Made by a program: the position numbers and the translations under genes
Virus record (IMG/VR): IMGVR_UViG_3300030333_002778
Span: 1 to 64,000 of that record
From: a virus
Length of the DNA stretch: 64,000 nt
Direction: 5' to 3' (one strand)
Shown: positions 9,093-25,318 of the stretch, one piece after another
How positions within the stretch are numbered: position 1 is the stretch's first letter
How the letters are laid out: each line of letters begins with the position of its first letter
Notes under the pieces: generated by a model
Databases searched by the model: none
The model's input: only the letters and a program-made list of their open reading frames with translations
What the model was told of the DNA's origin: nothing

Positions 9093-11503
9093 TAATCTTT
9101 TTTATATGGTTTTATTTCTCCTTCCATTTGAAAAGGATTTTCTTCTACCTCTTCTTCTCCTTCTTTTTTTCTTTGTAAATTATATCTAAATAAAGATTGC
9201 TCTTTAAACTTTTGCATTTCTCTCGCATGACGTTCTTTAAGAGCTTCTGGACTTTCAAACATCCATAGAGGATTTCCACCAGGTTCAGTTCTATATGGTA
9301 TAAAGAAATTCATAAGAGGAGAATATTGATCATGATATTCTATATTAGGATTTCTACCACCGCTAGGTCCAAATAACCAATTATATCTATTTGTTACTCC
9401 TGATTGATATCTATCATATTCCGTAGAAATCGTACTTCCTCTATGCCCCCACCATATCATTCTATCTGAAATAATAGGTTTAAATGTTGGATTCCATGAA
9501 CTTGTAGTTTTTAAATATGGATTAATTCTATAATTTAATGCATTTCTAAGATTTGCTTGTTGTATATTAACATTAAATAAATTTGGATTTTGATAAGGTG
9601 TCCATAACTGACCCATACCTTTATTACCAAATAAGTTATTAAAATAATTTGATTGGTTAAGACCTGCTTGATTTCCATATATACCTTTACCTCCTAATAC
9701 ACCACCTCCTAATTCAGGAGCAGTTCTATACATTTTTAAATTAGGATCCCATCTCATTTGTTGATGAGTCATATATCCTCTATTATTTAATAAGAATGGT
9801 GAACCTCCTTGAATGTTAAAACCTTTTGTAGAATATTTACCAAACTGAGGACCAAATAATAAACCCTCTCCTGGAGATTGAGATAAAGTTTTATTTAATT
9901 TTTTATTCCAATTAGCAAGATTTCTTTCAGCACCACCTCTATAACCTTTAAAAAGAGTTAATCTAGTAGGGTCAATACCTTGACTATATTTAAAAGTATA
10001 AAAAGCTGCAGGATCAAACTGGCCTGCAGGAATTTGTCCTCCCTTTGTTTGATTAACCCAATTACCAGTCATATGTGCAAAGTTGGGATTAAGTTTATTA
10101 TTTTGTGCTATATTAGCTGCTCTAATATTAGCATTAAAAGTACCAGCCGCTGGGCCTACATTATAATAAGTTCCAAAAGGACCTTTAGGCATAAGAGCAG
10201 CAGACCAATCTTTCCAAAATATATTTCTAGGATCTAAATCTTTCAGCCTAACACTTCCTAGTTTTCTCTTTATATTTGCAAGATTACCAAAATCCATTAA
10301 TTTACCCATACCTGTTGTACTACCTTTTGGCCAATTATTATATAAGGTTATAGGATTATATGCTTTTACTATACTAGCAAATTGACCTACTTTATTTTTA
10401 AAAGGAGAAATTATATTATTTTTCCAGAATTTCTTTTTAAATAATTTAGGAAAATGTTTTATATCTTTAAGAGCTCCCCATCCTCTTCCTCCTACACCCC
10501 ATATAAATTCACCAGGCCCATTACTTGCTATCATCATAGATTTTGGAATGGGATTACCCTCAGGATCATACCCTCCCATAAACATAAAATCATGAGGTTC
10601 TCCATTTTTTGTCCAATCCCCGCTATATTGTACACCACCTTCTGGTGTAAAAGTTATTCCCATATTAGAACTCATAAAACTTGCAACATCATTATTAAAA
10701 GCTTTATATACATTATATTCTTCAGGACTAAAACCTATTGTATCAAGAAAGAAAGAATCGGGTGCACCTGTTAATCGAAGATTCATTCTTTCTTTTTCAG
10801 ATAAACTGCCTATATATGCATCCATTTTATTAATTACCGAATCCGCTAATTTATCATTTTCTTTCCAATATTTTTGTGTAGCAACTCTATTAAATAATTC
10901 AGTAAGATCTATACCAAGATTAGCAGCCATAGGCCATTTTTTATTTAATACCTCATGAGGTACTGCCCAAGAACCATCTGCATTTCTTATTAAAGCTGAA
11001 AGAGGATCATTATAAAACCTCTTCATTTCTCTATAATATTTATTTGATTCTGATCTACGTATTGATTTATCTTTTTTTACATTTGAATAAAAAGCCTCAT
11101 AATTTCTCATGAATTCTCTTTTCTGCTTAGGATCATTTAAATCAAAATCTGTATCTATAGATTCTAAAAACTCATTCCAACGTAACATTTCTTCGCCTGC
11201 CATACCTCCCTCAGTATAACTATCAAATCCATAAAAATCTGCATAATCAGAATGTAGACCTTTATCTCTTAGTACACTTGAATCTCCTGCTCTGTTTCTT
11301 TCTTTTCCTACTTCCCAAAAAGCATCATCAGGAATCTTCCAAAAATCAGACCAGCCTTGTGCAGGTAATCCTACAGTATTAAGCAGAAAATTTTCTGGAT
11401 CAATAAAAACTTCATCTTCTGGATGAGGAGGTGGTCCACCATGACTCATCTTAGATCTGCCTCTAGGTACTAGATATTTATTATTTTTTCTTATTAGATT
11501 CAT
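9092..11503 (-). CDS. 803-aa unknown protein, probably virion cargo
   Basis: Long ORF coupled to portal; acidic N-half and basic G/N-rich C-half; N-terminal KMSHGG motif. Confidence 0.6.
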   Translation of the reverse strand: MNLIRKNNKYLVPRGRSKMSHGGPPPHPEDEVFIDPENFLLNTVGLPAQGWSDFWKIPDDAFWEVGKERNRAGDSSVLRDKGLHSDYADFYGFDSYTEGGMAGEEMLRWNEFLESIDTDFDLNDPKQKREFMRNYEAFYSNVKKDKSIRRSESNKYYREMKRFYNDPLSALIRNADGSWAVPHEVLNKKWPMAANLGIDLTELFNRVATQKYWKENDKLADSVINKMDAYIGSLSEKERMNLRLTGAPDSFFLDTIGFSPEEYNVYKAFNNDVASFMSSNMGITFTPEGGVQYSGDWTKNGEPHDFMFMGGYDPEGNPIPKSMMIASNGPGEFIWGVGGRGWGALKDIKHFPKLFKKKFWKNNIISPFKNKVGQFASIVKAYNPITLYNNWPKGSTTGMGKLMDFGNLANIKRKLGSVRLKDLDPRNIFWKDWSAALMPKGPFGTYYNVGPAAGTFNANIRAANIAQNNKLNPNFAHMTGNWVNQTKGGQIPAGQFDPAAFYTFKYSQGIDPTRLTLFKGYRGGAERNLANWNKKLNKTLSQSPGEGLLFGPQFGKYSTKGFNIQGGSPFLLNNRGYMTHQQMRWDPNLKMYRTAPELGGGVLGGKGIYGNQAGLNQSNYFNNLFGNKGMGQLWTPYQNPNLFNVNIQQANLRNALNYRINPYLKTTSSWNPTFKPIISDRMIWWGHRGSTISTEYDRYQSGVTNRYNWLFGPSGGRNPNIEYHDQYSPLMNFFIPYRTEPGGNPLWMFESPEALKERHAREMQKFKEQSLFRYNLQRKKEGEEEVEENPFQMEGEIKPYKKD

Positions 11504-14029: not shown

Positions 14030-16042
14030 TTAAAAGGTTTTTTTAGTCTTCTTAAATAAAGAAGATCTCCAAAATTTATCACCTTCACTAAATTTAAATT
14101 GCGCCTCTAAATCAATATGATAGTTTTCATGACTATGTAATATACATAACATAAATGCTATTACACGGTCAAAGTTACCATCTTTCTCATAAGCTATCAA
14201 CTCCTGAATTAAAGGAATTGAATATATACTATGGAGATTTAATTGATCTCCTTCTTCAGTATCTGCTCGTTTTTCTAACAACCAATCTCTTAAATAAATT
14301 TCACATTGTACTTTAATAGGTTGGCTCATATGAACACCATATCCTCTACTTACCGTAGATCTATTTACAATATCTTTTAATATATTTGGTTGTGGTTTTA
14401 ACAAATGAAGACATTTTTTTTGCTCAAAATATATCTTCAATCCTTTTAAGTTATTCTCATACAAACTCTGTGCATTATAATAAGTTAAAAGCTTTCTAAC
14501 ATTTTCATAATATTCTTTAGCTGTTTCAGGTCTACCTGTATATTCTGCTACAGGAATATTATAAGTTTTATCAAACTTCTGAAATGTTTTATATATGAAA
14601 GTACTTCCTAAAGAACTAGTAGTAGAATCGTCCTGATCATAAGGGTCAGTTCCAGCTATGTATAATCCATAAGGAGTATTACCATCATTATCTCTAAAAG
14701 GATGTTCCCATATTACAACACATCCTGTTTTATCATCTGTAGGTTTAATTGGGAATTTAGTTATAGGTTTTAATTCTATATTAGGCATCCATTTAACTAT
14801 ATCCTTTTCCCAATACAGCTCTCCTAACATAGCCATGTCTTGAGCTTTCTTAGTTACTTCTAATTCTCCTAACCAAGCATTCAACTCAATAGTTGGGAAT
14901 ATATTTCCACTACTTTTTAGAAATGCTTCTCTAGGAGTTTTAGGAGATTGTGTAATATACTTTTCCCATGTAGTTCTTGAATCTGTAGTTTTAATGATCT
15001 TTCTTTCTTGATCTAAAAATTCTTCTGCTGCAGCTCTATTTGAGTTACCTTCTTCATCTACCATAGAAACTACATCACCATTTTCTAAAGTAACTTTTCC
15101 TGGTTTATACCACATATCATCTATAAAGAACCCACAATTAGTTCCAGCTCCTCCTTCATCCCATACATTTTCAAATGGTCTTAACCAATATTTATCAGGG
15201 TTATAAAACATTTCTGCAAAATCATTTGATCCTCCTTCCATATCACCACCCGTTCCGAATATTAATGGCATACCAATCATTACATTACCATCTCTAAATA
15301 CAGGTGCTGTAATCATATATGCATTTATAAGATTAGGAAATTTACCAGCTTCTTCCCATAACATAAGATCGGCAGTTTTACCAATAGCTGCTGAAAAGTT
15401 ATCTTTAAATGTTAATGTAAAAATTTCACTATTATATCCATTCCATACTTCTTTACCTTCTACTATTTCTTTGAATCTAGCTTTAACAAAATCTCTACGA
15501 TCTGGATTTCTACGTTTCGCCCATGCTGTATGTTTGTTTAAAAAGTTAATCATTTCTAAACTCATGGCCATTGTAGCACCACCATATTCATTTAAATATG
15601 CACCAATAATACTTGTAGAATCCTTAAAGAAATTATATTGATGAACACATAGAGCACCATTCTTATATGAGAAACCTTTACGTCTCGCTTTAGCTACTAT
15701 CATACCTTGACCATTTTCTCTTGCTTTTTCACATTCGTCAAAATAATAATAATCCATATCTAAAAAACTTGGAAAGGTTAAAATCTTCCTTTCCAACTTT
15801 CCTTTTTTTACAGTAGCTTTTATTTGTGTAAAATTAAGATAGAAATAATGAGGTCCTGTTATTCGGACCCCACCTACTTCGAATCCTTCCAAACACCTTC
15901 TAGTTTGCTCATCCCAATATTCTCTATATGCATAGGTTCCTGGGGGAGAATTTGTGTAATAGCCATTTTTTAAAAAACTTCTAGCTTCACACGAAAACTC
16001 CCTGGTATTAACAAACGAAGGAATTTGACCGAAATGATTCAT
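14030..16042 (-). CDS. terL: Terminase large subunit
   Basis: ITGPHYFYLNF, Walker A KARRKGFSYK, Walker B LWEEAG, GTGG, nuclease GTDPYD, NFDRV. Confidence 0.96.
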   Translation of the reverse strand: MNHFGQIPSFVNTREFSCEARSFLKNGYYTNSPPGTYAYREYWDEQTRRCLEGFEVGGVRITGPHYFYLNFTQIKATVKKGKLERKILTFPSFLDMDYYYFDECEKARENGQGMIVAKARRKGFSYKNGALCVHQYNFFKDSTSIIGAYLNEYGGATMAMSLEMINFLNKHTAWAKRRNPDRRDFVKARFKEIVEGKEVWNGYNSEIFTLTFKDNFSAAIGKTADLMLWEEAGKFPNLINAYMITAPVFRDGNVMIGMPLIFGTGGDMEGGSNDFAEMFYNPDKYWLRPFENVWDEGGAGTNCGFFIDDMWYKPGKVTLENGDVVSMVDEEGNSNRAAAEEFLDQERKIIKTTDSRTTWEKYITQSPKTPREAFLKSSGNIFPTIELNAWLGELEVTKKAQDMAMLGELYWEKDIVKWMPNIELKPITKFPIKPTDDKTGCVVIWEHPFRDNDGNTPYGLYIAGTDPYDQDDSTTSSLGSTFIYKTFQKFDKTYNIPVAEYTGRPETAKEYYENVRKLLTYYNAQSLYENNLKGLKIYFEQKKCLHLLKPQPNILKDIVNRSTVSRGYGVHMSQPIKVQCEIYLRDWLLEKRADTEEGDQLNLHSIYSIPLIQELIAYEKDGNFDRVIAFMLCILHSHENYHIDLEAQFKFSEGDKFWRSSLFKKTKKTF

Positions 16043-16257
16043 TTTTTCTTAGCAACTTTTTCAAATCCACTAATACCAAAACATCCGAGTACTACCCAGA
16101 CAAATGAATCATATACAAATTCATTTATAACTAGATCATGTCCTACTGATCCTGTTACTAAATCGATTACCATTACAATAATCATTATTAAAAAAGCCAC
16201 GAATCCTACGATAGCTTTTTCATTCCAATCATTGGAATCTTTAAAAATTTCCATCAT
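16039..16257 (-). CDS. Two-TM membrane protein, holin candidate
   Basis: 72 aa, two hydrophobic segments, basic C-terminus EKVAKKK. Confidence 0.6.
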   Translation of the reverse strand: MMEIFKDSNDWNEKAIVGFVAFLIMIIVMVIDLVTGSVGHDLVINEFVYDSFVWVVLGCFGISGFEKVAKKK

Positions 16258-16258
16258 A

Positions 16259-16636
16259 CTAATTAAATTTATTTAACATTAAAGTATCTATAGAATGCTG
16301 AACAGTTTTTTTGTCCGCATCTAATTTAAACATAACATTAGCATTAAACCTTTCTTTTTCTTCCCCACTTTCAAAAATTATAACAGTAGGTATAGCACTA
16401 ACATTATACATTGATTGAACATCCATATACATAGAAATATCTATTCTATAAACTTTACAATCTTTTAATTTTGATAATTCTTTAAATTCATTAGCAGAAT
16501 TCCACGATGCCCAAAACTCAACCGCTACTATATTCTTTGCTATTTTTGATTTAAAATTATCTGAATTTAACATTTCTTGACCTATACAATTATTCAATCC
16601 AAATAGTATCAAAAAACTAATTATAATTCTTTTCAT
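16259..16636 (-). CDS. Exported thioredoxin-fold protein lacking CxxC
   Basis: Signal peptide; VAVEFWASWNSAN in place of FWAxWCxxC; YNVSAIPTVIIF cis-Pro loop. Confidence 0.72.
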   Translation of the reverse strand: MKRIIISFLILFGLNNCIGQEMLNSDNFKSKIAKNIVAVEFWASWNSANEFKELSKLKDCKVYRIDISMYMDVQSMYNVSAIPTVIIFESGEEKERFNANVMFKLDADKKTVQHSIDTLMLNKFN

Positions 16637-16977
16637 TTTCTTAATAGTTTTATTTCATCCTTAAGTTCATCAAGGTCTTTTATTAATTGATCAATTTGAT
16701 TACGAGCCATTTGATCTTTCATATTAAACTCCATACGAGTTGGAGGCCATGTATTACTAGCAGCTGGATCTCCCATATCTATTGTATATGTACCTGTTCC
16801 TGGTTTTGGCATTTCTAAAGCTCTTTCTACTTTATCTTCTAATTCTACAAACTTAGAATTTATAGTACCCATTAAACCAAAGTAAGCAGATATAACACTA
16901 GCAACTCCTACTACTATACCTATTAAAGTTTTTATACTTATTTGAAATTTACTTTCTTCTGAGAGTTCTTTTGCCAT
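16633..16977 (-). CDS. Single-pass membrane protein with coiled coil
   Basis: TM segment LIGIVVGVASVISAYFGL and coiled-coil segments. Confidence 0.6.
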   Translation of the reverse strand: MAKELSEESKFQISIKTLIGIVVGVASVISAYFGLMGTINSKFVELEDKVERALEMPKPGTGTYTIDMGDPAASNTWPPTRMEFNMKDQMARNQIDQLIKDLDELKDEIKLLRK

Positions 16978-17747
16978 TATTTTGTTATTAAATATTTAAC
17001 TTTTCCACTTTGAATATATAATCCATCTGGCTCTCTAATAGCTTGTCCTAATAAATTATACATTATATTATTATCTTTAGAATTTTCTATTATATCAGGA
17101 ATATTAGATGAACAAGGAAGTCCTGTGTCACAATCTAAATATTCTGTTATTACAACATCTACATATTCTATTATAGTATCAGTTGTAAAAAACTCTACAT
17201 ATTCTATTTCTACTATAGTATCAAATACAATTACATCTACATATTCAATAACATCTACAAATAATGTATCTAATACATCTTCGTATATAGTTACTGTATC
17301 TGTTACAAATATATACTCAGGTACAAATGTTTCTACTTCTACTGTATCTATTAAGATCTGAGTTATATATTCAGTATTATATATTGTATCTATTTGAAAG
17401 ATTGTTTCATATATATAAAATGGAACCTCTAGAGTATCTGTTTCAAAAACATATTCTATTACATCTACATATACTGTGTCACAATCTGGTGGAGGTGGTA
17501 TACAATCCATAGGTGAAGTTGGTACTACATCAGCTCCCTCATCACTGGCATCGACACAATCTACCCACCCATCATTAATCCATTGAGTAACAACGCATCC
17601 ATCAGGTGCATATTGAGTCCAATTTGCTGGATCATCTCCACAATAAAAACCTTCTTGTTCAGCACAGTCTAAACATAATTGCTGAAAATCAAATTGAGAA
17701 TAAGCAAACGAGCTTATTAACAAAAGTATGTATATTATATTCTTCAT
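16977..17747 (-). CDS. Secreted protein: LDL-receptor class A-like domain, DT/V repeat stalk and T9SS-CTD-like tail
   Basis: Signal peptide; FYCG...GCVVTQWINDGWVDCVDASDE; repeated DT(I/L/V); C-terminal YNLLGQ...GLYIQSGKVKYLITK. Confidence 0.62.
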   Translation of the reverse strand: MKNIIYILLLISSFAYSQFDFQQLCLDCAEQEGFYCGDDPANWTQYAPDGCVVTQWINDGWVDCVDASDEGADVVPTSPMDCIPPPPDCDTVYVDVIEYVFETDTLEVPFYIYETIFQIDTIYNTEYITQILIDTVEVETFVPEYIFVTDTVTIYEDVLDTLFVDVIEYVDVIVFDTIVEIEYVEFFTTDTIIEYVDVVITEYLDCDTGLPCSSNIPDIIENSKDNNIMYNLLGQAIREPDGLYIQSGKVKYLITK

Positions 17748-17751
17748 TATT

Positions 17752-18774
17752 TTAAAATATTAAATAGTTAAACCCAAACCTTACATCGAAAATTTCTTTA
17801 CCCCAGTAACGCATATGTGTTCCTTCTACAAACATTCCTAAATGTCTATTAAGTCTAGCACCTAATACTATACCTGCATCCCATTCTAATAGATCTAAAC
17901 CATCTTCATATTCATAAGAATATTTATCTAATCCATAATGAAAAGGTAATACATTACCCCATGCATGTAACCAAAAATTCTCTGTCCATTTATAATAAGC
18001 TACTCCAAATACAGTGCTTATTTCTTTCTGCAAACCAAGTCTAGAAAGCTCTTGTTCATTAAATGATGCTACAGCATCTCCAAAATAATGCTTAAAAAAC
18101 TCATCATCACTTGTTGCAACTAATTCTTCTCCTTGAAACCAATGCCATTCTCCTTGTACATATTGTGTAGAATATCCAAAATCTTCAGCTAGATCTTGGA
18201 ATGTTGATTCACCTGGTACCCAAAAATCTTCTATAGGATTTATTCCGTATGCAGGATGCACTCTCATTACTGCACCTGCACTTATATCTATATTACCTTT
18301 ATTCCATCTATATCTTGTATCAAAAGAAGTATATTTTAAATCTACTCTTTGGTTATCTTTGTACTGGAATTTTGTGACGCATTTAGTTCCCAAGTATCTA
18401 ATCCAGTAATCCTGATCAGTAAACTTTTCACCACGATTACGTATAAAAGAATAATTAAACAAATACTCCCAACCATTAGCATTACCAATAGTAACGTCAT
18501 CTGAAACATTTCTTTCATCACCATAATACCATGTTTTAACTTTGTATTCATAATCAAATCTTGCTATTTTACGAAGGCCTACCGTTATATTAAAATCATA
18601 AGGATTGACCTCCGTTACATCCTCATAACCTTTATTTACCGCAATATAATCCTCTCTTTCTGTCATTGATGTTCCCATTGACATCGATGAATAAAAGGTT
18701 GAGTATTTAAAAAAATTATTCTGTCCTGTTGCAAAACTAAAACAAAATATTAATATGTATAAAATTCTTTTCAT
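17752..18774 (-). CDS. Putative outer-membrane beta-barrel protein
   Basis: Signal peptide; alternating aromatic/hydrophobic strands; C-terminal beta-signal-like DVRFGFNYLIF. Confidence 0.62.
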   Translation of the reverse strand: MKRILYILIFCFSFATGQNNFFKYSTFYSSMSMGTSMTEREDYIAVNKGYEDVTEVNPYDFNITVGLRKIARFDYEYKVKTWYYGDERNVSDDVTIGNANGWEYLFNYSFIRNRGEKFTDQDYWIRYLGTKCVTKFQYKDNQRVDLKYTSFDTRYRWNKGNIDISAGAVMRVHPAYGINPIEDFWVPGESTFQDLAEDFGYSTQYVQGEWHWFQGEELVATSDDEFFKHYFGDAVASFNEQELSRLGLQKEISTVFGVAYYKWTENFWLHAWGNVLPFHYGLDKYSYEYEDGLDLLEWDAGIVLGARLNRHLGMFVEGTHMRYWGKEIFDVRFGFNYLIF

Positions 18775-18908
18775 TATCTTCCTTGTCTATTATATTTTTT
18801 AAAATAATTTTTACTACTTTTTGAAGAGGACATTTTGCTTTTAGCATGTATCCCCTTTCTTTTTTTACTAGCGTTTCCGCTAAATACAAACGCTGCTCTT
18901 TTTGTCAT
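18774..18908 (-). CDS. 44-aa basic micro-protein (not in ORF track)
   Basis: MTKRAAFVFSGNASKKRKGIHAKSKMSSSKSSKNYFKKYNRQGR; TAATG coupling to the next gene. Confidence 0.65.
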   Translation of the reverse strand: MTKRAAFVFSGNASKKRKGIHAKSKMSSSKSSKNYFKKYNRQGR

Positions 18909-19137
18909 TTCTAAATTTCATTAATTCCGCACACCTTTCATATTCTTCTTCTTCCTCGTAATATTGTATTAAAACATCTACATCACATTCTTCATCTTCT
19001 AACATATTAAAAGGTAGCATTACTTCATCCTTATTATCTAATATTTCATCAAATGTACATTTACCAGTAATAATAAGATAAGCATTATCAAATGCTTCAC
19101 TTAATATTTCAGTATCATACTTTTCTTGCCTATGCAT
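18880..19137 (-). CDS. Small protein with UVR-like motif
   Basis: LIQYYEEEEEYERCAEL; paralogous to 41026-41373. Confidence 0.55.
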   Translation of the reverse strand: MHRQEKYDTEILSEAFDNAYLIITGKCTFDEILDNKDEVMLPFNMLEDEECDVDVLIQYYEEEEEYERCAELMKFRNDKKSSVCI

Positions 19138-19609
19138 AATCTACATATTTAATTGTAACCTCTTCTCCAGCTTCTAATGCAGCTGCAATAGGAGGATATA
19201 TCCTAGCATATGCTTGAGAAGACTTTCCTATAAATCCATCTTTCTTTATTTGATTATTAGTTTGAGTATCTCCTACTAATAAACAACCAGCAGTATGCTC
19301 GTCAGTATTTCCACAATGTATGAGAATATACTTAAAATTAGGAACATTAATAACATGCAAGGTACCCTTATGTATATCGGCAAACCGTTTAGTATAGTTA
19401 TCATGGATCCTACCGATCTTTCTAAGTATAACTTTATACTCTCCGGCAGGGATTCTAGTCTCCGCCATAACTTTTTCATTGTAACTATCTCTATATTCAT
19501 CTTCTAATGTGTATGCTAAAAACTTAGCGTTATCTGGATCTGTAACGTCAAACAACACTCCCGATGTTGAGTCCTCTCCACTACTTATTCTTATTACTTT
19601 TAATTTCAT
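19130..19609 (-). CDS. DUF5675-type L,D-peptidase, putative endolysin
   Basis: YTLED, TRIPAGEY, ILIHCGNT..HTAGCLLVG (His/Cys motif). Confidence 0.82.
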   Translation of the reverse strand: MKLKVIRISSGEDSTSGVLFDVTDPDNAKFLAYTLEDEYRDSYNEKVMAETRIPAGEYKVILRKIGRIHDNYTKRFADIHKGTLHVINVPNFKYILIHCGNTDEHTAGCLLVGDTQTNNQIKKDGFIGKSSQAYARIYPPIAAALEAGEEVTIKYVDYA

Positions 19610-19830: not shown

Positions 19831-20148
19831 CTATTTTATTTTATATTCAGGCCATCTATCATCTGGACATGTAGATGTACCCCACTTTGCTTTAACATCA
19901 ATAAAGCAACCACACTTAGAACATTTTTCATCCTTTCTCCATGGACAAGTATTACAGATAGCAATTCGCTTTTCAAATACTTCTTTGCCCGCATCATGCA
20001 TTCCAGATTTAACATATTTTGCTAAACTTTTTGTAAAATTCCAAGCCTGTTTTGTTATACTTGGCATAACTAATGGTTTTTGATTACCATATTCCTGAAC
20101 ACTTGGTCCAGTAGCTTTTTCCTTTTTTTTATTACATCCGCATCCCAT
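19831..20148 (-). CDS. Cys-rich zinc-binding protein (DUF6171-like)
   Basis: RIAICNTCP...CSKCGCFIDVKAKW...CPDDRW; likely start MGCGCNKKK. Confidence 0.65.
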   Translation of the reverse strand: MGCGCNKKKEKATGPSVQEYGNQKPLVMPSITKQAWNFTKSLAKYVKSGMHDAGKEVFEKRIAICNTCPWRKDEKCSKCGCFIDVKAKWGTSTCPDDRWPEYKIK

Positions 20149-20152
20149 AATA

Positions 20153-20695
20153 TTAACGTTCATATAAACCAATATCTCCGCCCCCACGGACACGAGAATC
20201 AGTTTTGATTTCTTTTTTAATTCTATTCTCTAATTTATCTAAACTATCTACTATATTCCCTACTTTCTCTAGATTAATAGCTACATCCTTTGCATTATAC
20301 AAAGGTTTACCATTATCATCTGTTTTCAAAAAGTCTATAGTTTCAAAATAGTTTGCCAATTTATCTGAAGCTCCTCTAGCTGCTTTCATTAATCTCATTG
20401 TATGAGTTTCTTGAAATTCAACATATCTAGTTTTTGCTTCCTCTATATCCTTATCTTCTTTCCACTTTTCATCTTTCATAAAATCTTTTAAGATGATCTC
20501 CTTTCTTTTATTAGAAGGATATGCCATATAAGGACTATTAAAATCACACATAAAAAATATATATGATATTTCTCTAGTAGCTTTATCTTTACTTTTTGAC
20601 TTATCTCTTTTCCATATTTTATTAAAAATAGGAATAGCCAATGATTCAGCATTTAAAACTATATGTCCTCCTTTTATATCAAATAATGATGCCAT
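20153..20695 (-). CDS. Conserved crAss-like late protein (possible terminase small subunit)
   Basis: IWKRDKSKSKDKA..E..YIFFMCDFNSPY and C-terminal RVRGG; helical; TerS role is a guess. Confidence 0.55.
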   Translation of the reverse strand: MASLFDIKGGHIVLNAESLAIPIFNKIWKRDKSKSKDKATREISYIFFMCDFNSPYMAYPSNKRKEIILKDFMKDEKWKEDKDIEEAKTRYVEFQETHTMRLMKAARGASDKLANYFETIDFLKTDDNGKPLYNAKDVAINLEKVGNIVDSLDKLENRIKKEIKTDSRVRGGGDIGLYER

Positions 20696-25201: not shown

Positions 25202-25318
25202 ATGAAAAGAATAATTTATACATTACTACTAATAGGACTATTCACGAGTTGTGCTTCTGGCAAAATAAACTCGTGTTGGAGTAGTAATGGAAAAACAATA
25301 AATGGTCTGTATAAATAA
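25202..25318 (+). CDS. 38-aa lipoprotein
   Basis: MKRIIYTLLLIGLFTS-CASGKINSCW...; lipobox FTSC. Confidence 0.7.
   Translation: MKRIIYTLLLIGLFTSCASGKINSCWSSNGKTINGLYK

Follow-up and report, generated by a model that had tools for sequence, protein, structure and literature searches.

How phages of Bacteroidota, the abundant crAss-like group included, leave their hosts through the outer membrane is, to our knowledge, essentially unstudied, and one viral locus raises the question of what a set of phage genes for envelope proteins does beside the genes for lysis. The window, the whole stretch of 64,000 nucleotides analyzed here, covers positions 1 to 64,000 of IMG/VR record IMGVR_UViG_3300030333_002778, an 89,460-bp record rated 100% complete. 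Five of its genes (16039-18774, minus strand) encode a predicted outer-membrane barrel, an exported partner, a single-pass inner-membrane protein, a thioredoxin-fold protein, and a two-helix membrane protein. An earlier interpretation from the DNA letters, here called the sequence-only reading, had described them as a five-gene envelope cassette between the endolysin gene and the TerL gene, and had proposed a trans-envelope system serving in lysis, receptor masking, or surface display. Three of the five genes are found here to form a conserved core that recurs beside four non-homologous endolysins in different phage lineages. It is tentatively proposed, at somewhat less than an even chance, that the module is a spanin-like outer-membrane-breaching or envelope device of the lysis cassette, suited to Bacteroidota hosts that bear a type IX secretion system (T9SS). 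The five genes are as follows.

16039-16257, minus strand: g72, two-helix membrane protein, 72 aa, from the open reading frame (ORF) list; accessory
16259-16636, minus strand: g125, thioredoxin-fold protein (PF00085), 125 aa; core
16633-16977, minus strand: g114, predicted single-pass inner-membrane protein (hydrophobic window), 114 aa; core
16977-17747, minus strand: g256, exported barrel partner (signal peptide, LDLa-like module), 256 aa; clade-specific
17752-18774, minus strand: g340, predicted outer-membrane barrel (AlphaFold2 [AF2] model), 340 aa; core

A conserved core of three genes

The ORF list gives the same coordinates for the five genes, and consecutive genes are at most 4 nt apart or overlap by up to 4 nt, a coupling as tight as had been stated. 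The end of g72 also overlaps the start of TerL by 4 nt, and the module is therefore part of the late operon. Every gene encodes a signal peptide or transmembrane (TM) segment, as had likewise been claimed: g340, g256, and g125 carry Q-rule signal peptides of the Bacteroidota type, cut just before Gln, g114 has one hydrophobic helix, and g72 has two. Judged from these features, the proteins would be distributed over the inner membrane, periplasm, outer membrane, and cell surface.

Relatives were collected from IMG/VR in two sets, one seeded with the barrel (108 relatives, 80 kept) and one with g114 (at least 544 relatives, 79 new loci examined); with more than 100 relatives of the barrel and at least 544 of g114, the flagged genes can be taken as real. 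The g125 gene always lies directly after g114 in the barrel-seeded loci and is immediately next in 76 of the 79 g114-seeded ones, the other three ending just past g114. The barrel is present in all but a few of the g114-seeded loci, and most of those without it have little upstream sequence. A barrel profile search of 1.8 billion representative proteins returned 300 clusters (50% identity), and loci with divergent barrels (30-47% identity) combine the barrel with homologs of g114 and g125 and hold no LDLa protein. Altogether, the trio is found together, at identities as low as about 30%, in hundreds of contigs from uncultured marine viruses, and g72 is found in about half of the barrel-seeded loci. 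Neighborhood conservation, on which the sequence-only reading had made its proposal depend, is thus wide from either seed. The system is nevertheless modular rather than a fixed five-gene cassette: barrel, g114, and g125 are its core, the partner is clade-specific, and g72 is accessory, so that the cassette as first described holds for the trio, whereas its LDLa and two-TM proteins belong to particular clades.

That these are unrelated small exported proteins, adjacent by chance, is hardly credible. Chance adjacency would sit well with the variable order of the sub-modules and with the other genes inserted between them in some loci, but it is already contradicted by the co-occurrence counts, as the genes are translationally coupled and the trio persists both in clades that are about 30% identical and in phages whose TerL and portal families differ. 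The window's own TerL matches phrog_6681 (E 2.1e-139) and is about 40% identical to gut crAss-like TerL, which identifies the phage as a marine crAss-like one. This crAss-type TerL occurs in few of the loci only; in others, TerL is 22% identical or the portal belongs to a different family, and the module is therefore common to several phage lineages.

Neither the barrel (three divergent members, by tblastn) nor g114 has a homolog in 50,697 GenBank phage records. Among 185,579 species genomes, the barrel occurs in only three contigs of metagenome-assembled genomes (MAGs), L082-L084, of which L082 and L083 carry the phage module beside it. L083 and L084 (PBPJ01000041.1, PBPJ01000028.1) are binned in a 'Woesearchaeota archaeon' MAG and L082 (NZWA01000061.1) in a Flavobacteriales MAG; the archaeal binning is almost certainly an error.

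Lysis genes around the module

All ORFs neighboring the module were clustered, and the recurrent ones were annotated. Four endolysin types are found beside it: a Peptidase_M15_3/phrog_894 enzyme directly after the thioredoxin gene, a phrog_3000/33083 enzyme directly before the barrel, the DUF5675 type near the module, and, in L082, a PG_binding_1+Amidase_2 enzyme directly after the thioredoxin gene. Another recurrent neighbor is a holin of the phrog_3427 family (GTA_holin_3TM-like). Of the 58 unique loci that extend at least 4 kb to either side, 49 hold an endolysin type and 36 this holin, and the endolysin touches a module gene in 26. Because the loci are phylogenetically related, these counts are not independent events, and recurrence beside four non-homologous endolysins is the stronger argument. 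Since four unrelated endolysin types and a holin family stand beside the module in different lineages, the module belongs to the lysis cassette. Of the roles first put forward for a trans-envelope system, lysis has accordingly gained evidence, while the notion that all five genes make up one unit has to be given up.

In the window, the following genes flank the module.

14030-16042, minus strand: TerL (phrog_6681), downstream boundary of the module, its start overlapping the g72 stop
19130-19609, minus strand: g159, DUF5675 protein (Pfam PF18925), candidate cytoplasmic endolysin

The earlier placing of the cassette between endolysin and TerL is right in that the DUF5675 and TerL genes flank it, but two small ORFs, g85 and g44 (85 and 44 aa), separate g159 from g340, so the endolysin is not strictly adjacent to the barrel. 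The g159 product matches DUF5675 (PF18925, E 3.7e-24) and phrog_1501, has no signal peptide or TM segment, and has H98, C99, and C109 invariant in 17 homologs, including an H98...C109 pair; a sequence search of the PDB returned nothing useful. DUF5675 has been classed as a C82-like peptidase lysin domain, grouped structurally with C82 peptidases (2026 preprint 10.64898/2026.04.11.717860), and g159 is a candidate cytoplasmic endolysin of the C82 / L,D-transpeptidase-like peptidase kind.

The g72 protein has hydrophobic segments at about residues 15-34 and 47-65, a K-K-K end, and 84% mean column identity in its alignment. It matches no holin family profile in Pfam or PHROG and has the features of a class II holin, being small, with two TM domains, a charged C-terminus, and a place in a lysis cassette. 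The window's genome has no phrog_3427 holin, which makes g72 the holin candidate, and it is probably the holin of this genome. The idea that g72 and the phrog_3427 holin are mutually exclusive alternatives was abandoned, as both co-occur in many loci.

No ORF with a lipobox occurs in any frame of 15800-19200, and a scan of the whole 89-kb genome gave only one clean lipoprotein ORF, of 38 aa, at 25202-25318 in the early region. With no lipoprotein ORF in or near the cassette, the genome is without a spanin by the usual criteria, as are about 15% of phages of Gram-negative hosts, which have no recognizable spanin (10.1101/515445). A small lipoprotein ORF stands by g114/g125 in only 2 of 151 loci (L155, L166), and none does in the window. 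In these two loci, a Cys- and Lys-rich lipoprotein of 36-46 aa (L155:8677-8817, L166:8624-8734) is encoded directly after the thioredoxin gene, with an o-spanin-like position and size. The 38-aa ORF of the window (plus strand) lies among structured-RNA arrays and has a textbook lipoprotein signal, a hydrophobic core followed by F-T-S-C; it could encode an early exclusion-type lipoprotein.

The outer-membrane barrel

The 340-aa protein had been read as a barrel, and modeling agrees. The AF2 model of g340, built from a 48-sequence alignment, has 12 long antiparallel strands, with a predicted local distance difference test score (pLDDT) of 75.6 and a predicted template modeling score (pTM) of 0.71. 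Foldseek matches of this model in the PDB are exclusively outer-membrane barrels, and a VIA structural search (all against representatives) gave Z scores of 14.7 for Tsx, 13.1 for the EstA barrel, 12.9 for KdgM, 12.4 for NanC, and 11.9 for NalP, as against 7.0 for the T9SS shuttle PorV (6h3i_F). The near-invariant C-terminus, G-F-N-Y-L-I-F, is an aromatic beta-signal, and together with the signal peptide and the closed, even-stranded barrel it gives g340 the features of a substrate of the beta-barrel assembly machinery (BAM). The protein thus models as a 12-stranded outer-membrane beta-barrel. Strand parity places one turn, residues 73-97, on the periplasmic side, and because it is highly conserved but of low model confidence it is likely to be a docking site.

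No match to g340 was found in Pfam, NCBIfam (up to E 10), or PHROG; a language-model atlas places it among viral hypothetical proteins only, and its single homolog in BFVD comes from a UniProt viral entry. Across 19 divergent members of the barrel family, Gly, Tyr, one Glu, and one Arg are invariant, Ser is nearly so, and no His is. Because no catalytic-type residues are invariant, an outer-membrane enzyme role is unlikely, and an OMPLA/LpxR/PagL/OmpT-type enzyme was rejected on this ground.

The barrel could also be a divergent PorP/SprF (or PorV/PorQ) captured from a host, so that barrel and partner would make a host-type cargo/shuttle pair. The layout is like that of sprB-sprF, with cargo beside barrel, and the sizes are similar (about 310-340 aa), yet such an origin is very unlikely. 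The PorP/SprF profile PF11751 has no match in the phage up to E 1, and in the MAG that holds L082 (G001) it finds five true PorP/SprF genes and not the L082 barrel; NCBIfam is negative as well, and profile-profile comparison (hhalign) gave a probability of 11.8%, with only the signal peptide covered. PorV and PorQ were rejected on family profiles and on structure, the fold being nearer to 12-stranded barrels (Z 12-15, against 7.0 for PorV). The restriction of the barrel to three MAG contigs among all species genomes searched, at least two of them with the phage module, also speaks against capture of a host pair.

The exported barrel partner

The partner in the window, g256, consists of a signal peptide, a Cys module, a 126-aa acidic, low-complexity repeat region, and a C-terminal tail of about 30 aa (AF2 pLDDT about 88 for residues 20-85, below 30 for 88-213, and about 78 at the C-terminus). 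It had been described as LDLa/T9SS-like, a label that agrees with both its ends. Six Cys (C25, C28, C36, C51, C64, C82) are invariant in the 39 sequences of the family, as is an acidic cluster of D59, D63, D69, and E70, where the window reads N-D-G-W-V-D-C-V-D-A-S-D-E. The match to Ldl_recept_a (PF00057) scores 13.8 bits against a cut-off of 24.1; below-threshold matches to this profile occur in 31 of 39 homologs (best E 4e-4), and LDLa repeats head the Foldseek matches, at 30-37% identity and a non-significant E>1. The N-terminal module is LDLa-like and is predicted to bind Ca. The 126-residue stretch that follows is made up almost entirely of V, T, I, D, E, Y, and F; Lys and Arg are absent from it, and its length differs among homologs.

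The tail reads Y230-N-L-L-G234-Q-A-I-R, a three-residue gap (E-P-D), G-L-Y244-I245, and then G248-K-V-K, with Y230, G234, Y244, I245, and G248 invariant in the 39 family sequences. The 'short' C-terminal domains (CTDs) of T9SS cargo have been described as having motif B (Tyr, Gly, then basic), a gap of 1-6 aa, motif D (GxY followed by Ile), and, at the very end of the chain, motif E (Lys/Arg), and as adopting a three-stranded beta-sheet fold (Ye et al. 2025, PMC11969387). By inspection, with no statistical test, the tail agrees with motifs B, D, and E, and its residues 229-253 are modeled by AF2 as a helix and short strands (pLDDT about 75-80). The T9SS sorting-domain profiles PF18962/TIGR04183 match neither g256 nor any of the 39 homologs up to E 1.

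Located immediately downstream of the barrel in the window, g256 directly follows it in 76 of 80 loci, the exceptions being mostly contig ends, and it is the most variable member of the module (31-82% identity, indel-rich). A second exported protein always accompanies the barrel, and its nature changes with the clade. The window's clade has the LDLa/short-tail protein and the P0016-like clade an acidic lipoprotein of about 190 aa. In five loci (L082, L165, L168, L174, L184) the partner is a secreted protein of 700-1020 aa with a Por_Secre_tail (PF18962, E 1e-13 to 4e-6), its gene lying immediately upstream of the barrel and overlapping the barrel start. Binding-type domains recur among the partners, namely LDLa, AMPK1_CBM/CBM48 (L165), and MAM, and several T9SS cargo proteins encoded beside the barrel have CBM-like segments. 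In L155 (8814-11732), the gene for a 972-aa secreted phage protein with a MAM domain (PF00629, E 5e-19) follows just downstream of the module.

The T9SS itself pairs CTD proteins with outer-membrane barrels, as in PorV-PorU, PorQ-PorZ, and SprF-SprB. This pairing favors late surface remodeling, in which T9SS-exported cargo such as g256 would be tethered to the phage barrel, masking receptors, blocking superinfection, or preventing the re-adsorption of progeny to debris, while the link to lysis genes would reflect shared late timing only. It is also favored by five sister loci in which the barrel is translationally coupled to a genuine T9SS-CTD protein, by the short-CTD motifs of the g256 tail, by the variability and indels of the partner, as expected of a surface protein, and by a precedent for phage-encoded T9SS cargo (PMC7468147). 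Surface remodeling, though a serious contender, is judged unlikely all the same, since it leaves unexplained both g114 and g125, whose conservation reaches further than that of any cargo partner, and the four endolysin types that directly abut the module. Exclusion genes, moreover, are usually early or lysogenic, whereas the module lies in a late operon fused to TerL.

The thioredoxin-fold and inner-membrane proteins

The description of g125 as a redox-dead thioredoxin is well borne out. It scores 38.7 bits against PF00085 (cut-off 23.5), and a PDB profile search returned thioredoxin/PDI domains (E 3e-14) with their CxxC positions aligned to N46 and N49. In the family, W45, N46, N49, P83, and T84 are invariant, and the cis-Pro loop is retained; both cysteines of the CxxC motif are replaced by Asn (WCGPC to W-N-x-x-N), and the Cys pair is missing in distant clades as well. 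By its sequence, g125 is clearly a periplasmic thioredoxin fold without redox cysteines, and the loss of CxxC in a retained fold with its cis-Pro points to a binding rather than a redox role. A part as an o-spanin-type lipoprotein was also considered and rejected, because the Cys of the signal peptide is not conserved: it is absent in 73 of 136 homologs, with a canonical lipobox in only about a dozen, and g125 is therefore not generally a lipoprotein.

The g114 protein, taken to be a TM coiled-coil protein, begins with an N-terminal tail of 18 aa; a hydrophobic stretch covers residues 18-36, and a helix, a Pro/Gly linker, and a second helix follow, about 70 aa predicted to be periplasmic. The motif K-E-L-S-E-x-S-K-F in its predicted cytoplasmic tail is invariant in the alignment, and g114 matches phrog_20984 (E 1.6e-7). 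As a type II inner-membrane protein with an N-terminal TM segment and periplasmic helices, it has the features of an i-spanin, albeit with a short periplasmic part. In the P0016-like clade, the homolog is extended at its N-terminus by a cytoplasmic domain of some 90 aa, in which two L-G-x-I-L...Q-L motifs stand in tandem; these match DUF4388 weakly and may be MshEN-like. The gene directly upstream of the g114 homolog in L085 encodes a haem-NO-binding H-NOX protein (PF07700, E 2e-45), the two genes lying at 9413-9964 and 9964-10632.

These features are those expected if the module controlled the timing of lysis as a trans-envelope sensor. In that case g114 would be a class-III-type holin or regulator with g125 as its partner, like T4 T/RI, while the barrel and its ligand-binding surface partner (LDLa, CBM, MAM) would pass a signal from outside inward, FecA/FecR-style, and so delay or trigger lysis. 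A spanin would have no need of the invariant cytoplasmic motif, and the short periplasmic part of g114, the extra cytoplasmic domain of the P0016-like clade, the H-NOX gene in L085, and the binding-type domains of the partners (LDLa, AMPK1_CBM/CBM48, MAM) all fit a sensor. In the phrog_3000 architecture, furthermore, g114 is the only TM protein near the endolysin. That g114 is the sole possible holin there was weakened as a claim by weak phrog_3427 matches elsewhere in two of five such genomes, and g114 therefore need not be the holin in that architecture. Neither g114 nor g125 matches a holin or antiholin family in Pfam or PHROG, and the putative MshEN likeness is one of motif. Control of timing is for these reasons regarded as an improbable, if serious, contender.

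A fuller version, in which a T9SS-displayed ligand binder on the barrel (LDLa here, CBM- or MAM-bearing cargo elsewhere) would act through the periplasmic turn and g125 on the g114 motif to gate holin triggering, is a decidedly speculative proposition; in one clade, the domain added to that motif would be a tandem one of second-messenger type. If true, such a sensor and actuator of the lysis decision would inhibit or time lysis by a circuit that is not known to have been described for any phage.

A proposed envelope arm of lysis

The spanin-like reading tentatively preferred here would work as follows. Late in infection, host BAM would insert g340 into the outer membrane, and g256, exported by Sec and then by the T9SS, would remain attached to the barrel. 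Between g114 and the periplasmic turn of the barrel (residues 73-97), g125 would serve as a redox-inert adaptor. The holin, probably g72, would release the DUF5675 peptidase and, once the wall had been cut, the assembly would destabilize or rupture the outer membrane, the job done elsewhere by lipoprotein spanins. The g114 gene precedes and overlaps the g125 gene, as in i-/o-spanin gene pairs.

The proposal is held no more firmly than this because the evidence is positional and architectural, and several observations weigh against it. Gene neighborhood is association and not mechanism, the loci being phylogenetically related; and no cultured phage with the barrel was found. In all clades, the periplasmic part of g114 (about 60-80 aa) looks too short for Rz-style bridging, and its invariant cytoplasmic motif fits a spanin poorly; g125 is no lipoprotein in most members. 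For proteins of lysis, the sequences are unusually well conserved, at 62-79% in the barrel and 84% mean column identity in g72. Display or regulation would account at least as well as rupture for the T9SS cargo partner that keeps recurring, and for the signaling-type cytoplasmic domain on the g114 homologs of one clade.

Other genes of the locus

On the minus strand, the gene order is g180, g120 (DUF6171), g82, g159 (DUF5675), g85, g44, g340, g256, g114, g125, g72, TerL, and portal. The remaining features beside the module are as follows.

18774-18908, minus strand: g44, strongly basic ORF, 44 aa, with a 1-nt overlap with the barrel start; module membership uncertain
18880-19137, minus strand: g85, small acidic ORF, 85 aa, pI 4.2; module membership uncertain
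19831-20193, minus strand: g120, Cys-rich DUF6171 protein (family match, E 4e-9)
20153-20695, minus strand: g180, TerS-like, probably the small terminase, homologous to a gut crAss-like protein encoded directly upstream of TerL

The g85 ORF is kept only in the five closest crAss-like loci. With a pI of 11.7, 14 Lys and Arg residues, and no acidic residues, g44 is conserved only in the closest crAss-like relatives (four loci) and may not be a real gene; it recalls the phiKT 'disruptin', a cationic peptide of a lysis cassette (10.1101/515445). In phages of the phrog_3000 type (L039:7423-14190, L061, L076, L032), many small basic proteins that start with M-A-F-K-M or M-A-Y-x-Q-K-N-N-P are encoded around and inside the module.

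In a gut crAss-like phage, only one unrelated, hydrophilic ORF of 72 aa lies between the g180 homolog and TerL, and the block of about 4.1 kb from g120 to g72 is therefore read as an insertion in the marine lineage. Placed between a TerS-like gene and TerL, it looks like what would be expected of a mobile module.

Comparison with known systems

No paper describing this module was found in the literature, and no characterized system matches it. It is conserved, phage-specific, and widespread in marine viromes, its place in the genome is the one expected for a lysis function of this kind, and it combines a BAM-type barrel, a dead thioredoxin, and T9SS cargo, none of which is known to have been implicated in lysis. 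Should it indeed breach the outer membrane, it would amount to one more class of lysis machinery, by which phages exploit BAM and the T9SS; should it set lysis timing or remodel the surface instead, a new interface between phages and a major group of ocean carbon degraders would have come to light. Either way, it offers a concrete gene set for annotating the lysis cassettes of Bacteroidota phages.

The two-component spanins, such as lambda Rz/Rz1 (Kongari et al. 2018, PMC6139136), resemble the module in standing in a lysis cassette with the endolysin beside them, in having an N-anchored inner-membrane protein with periplasmic helices whose gene precedes and overlaps that of its partner, and in serving each layer of the envelope. 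They differ in that the outer-membrane part of the module is a BAM-type 12-stranded barrel rather than a small lipoprotein, in that a dead thioredoxin and T9SS-type cargo are added, and in that the g114 arm is only about 70 aa long. The sequences of the module are also far more conserved, and no part of it is homologous to a spanin.

The cargo/barrel pairs of the T9SS (SprB-SprF, PorU-PorV, PorZ-PorQ) likewise set an exported protein with a C-terminal signal beside a barrel of about 340 aa. Unlike the barrels of these pairs, g340 has 12 strands instead of 14, and no homology between it and PorP/SprF, PorV, or PorQ could be detected. The pair in the module is encoded by a phage as part of a lysis cassette, in constant linkage with an inner-membrane protein and a dead thioredoxin. 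The T9SS cargo of the 'Cryophage' (Bellas et al. 2020, PMC7468147) provides another likeness, as phage genes with T9SS sorting domains and a presumed hijacking of secretion, but these are enzymes or PA14-domain proteins in variable islands, with no barrel, inner-membrane partner, thioredoxin, or link to lysis reported.

The T4 holin T and antiholin RI share with g114 and g125 the combination of a single-pass protein (cytoplasmic N-terminus, periplasmic C-terminus) and a small Sec-exported periplasmic protein in a lysis context. There is no family match between them, however; the periplasmic domain of T is large and globular, and T4 has no outer-membrane or surface component. The redox-inactive thioredoxin modules b and b' of PDI, finally, retain the fold and the cis-Pro loop and have lost CxxC, as g125 has, whereas g125 is a phage protein of the periplasm that stands alone, and an invariant N-x-x-N occupies what was the active site.

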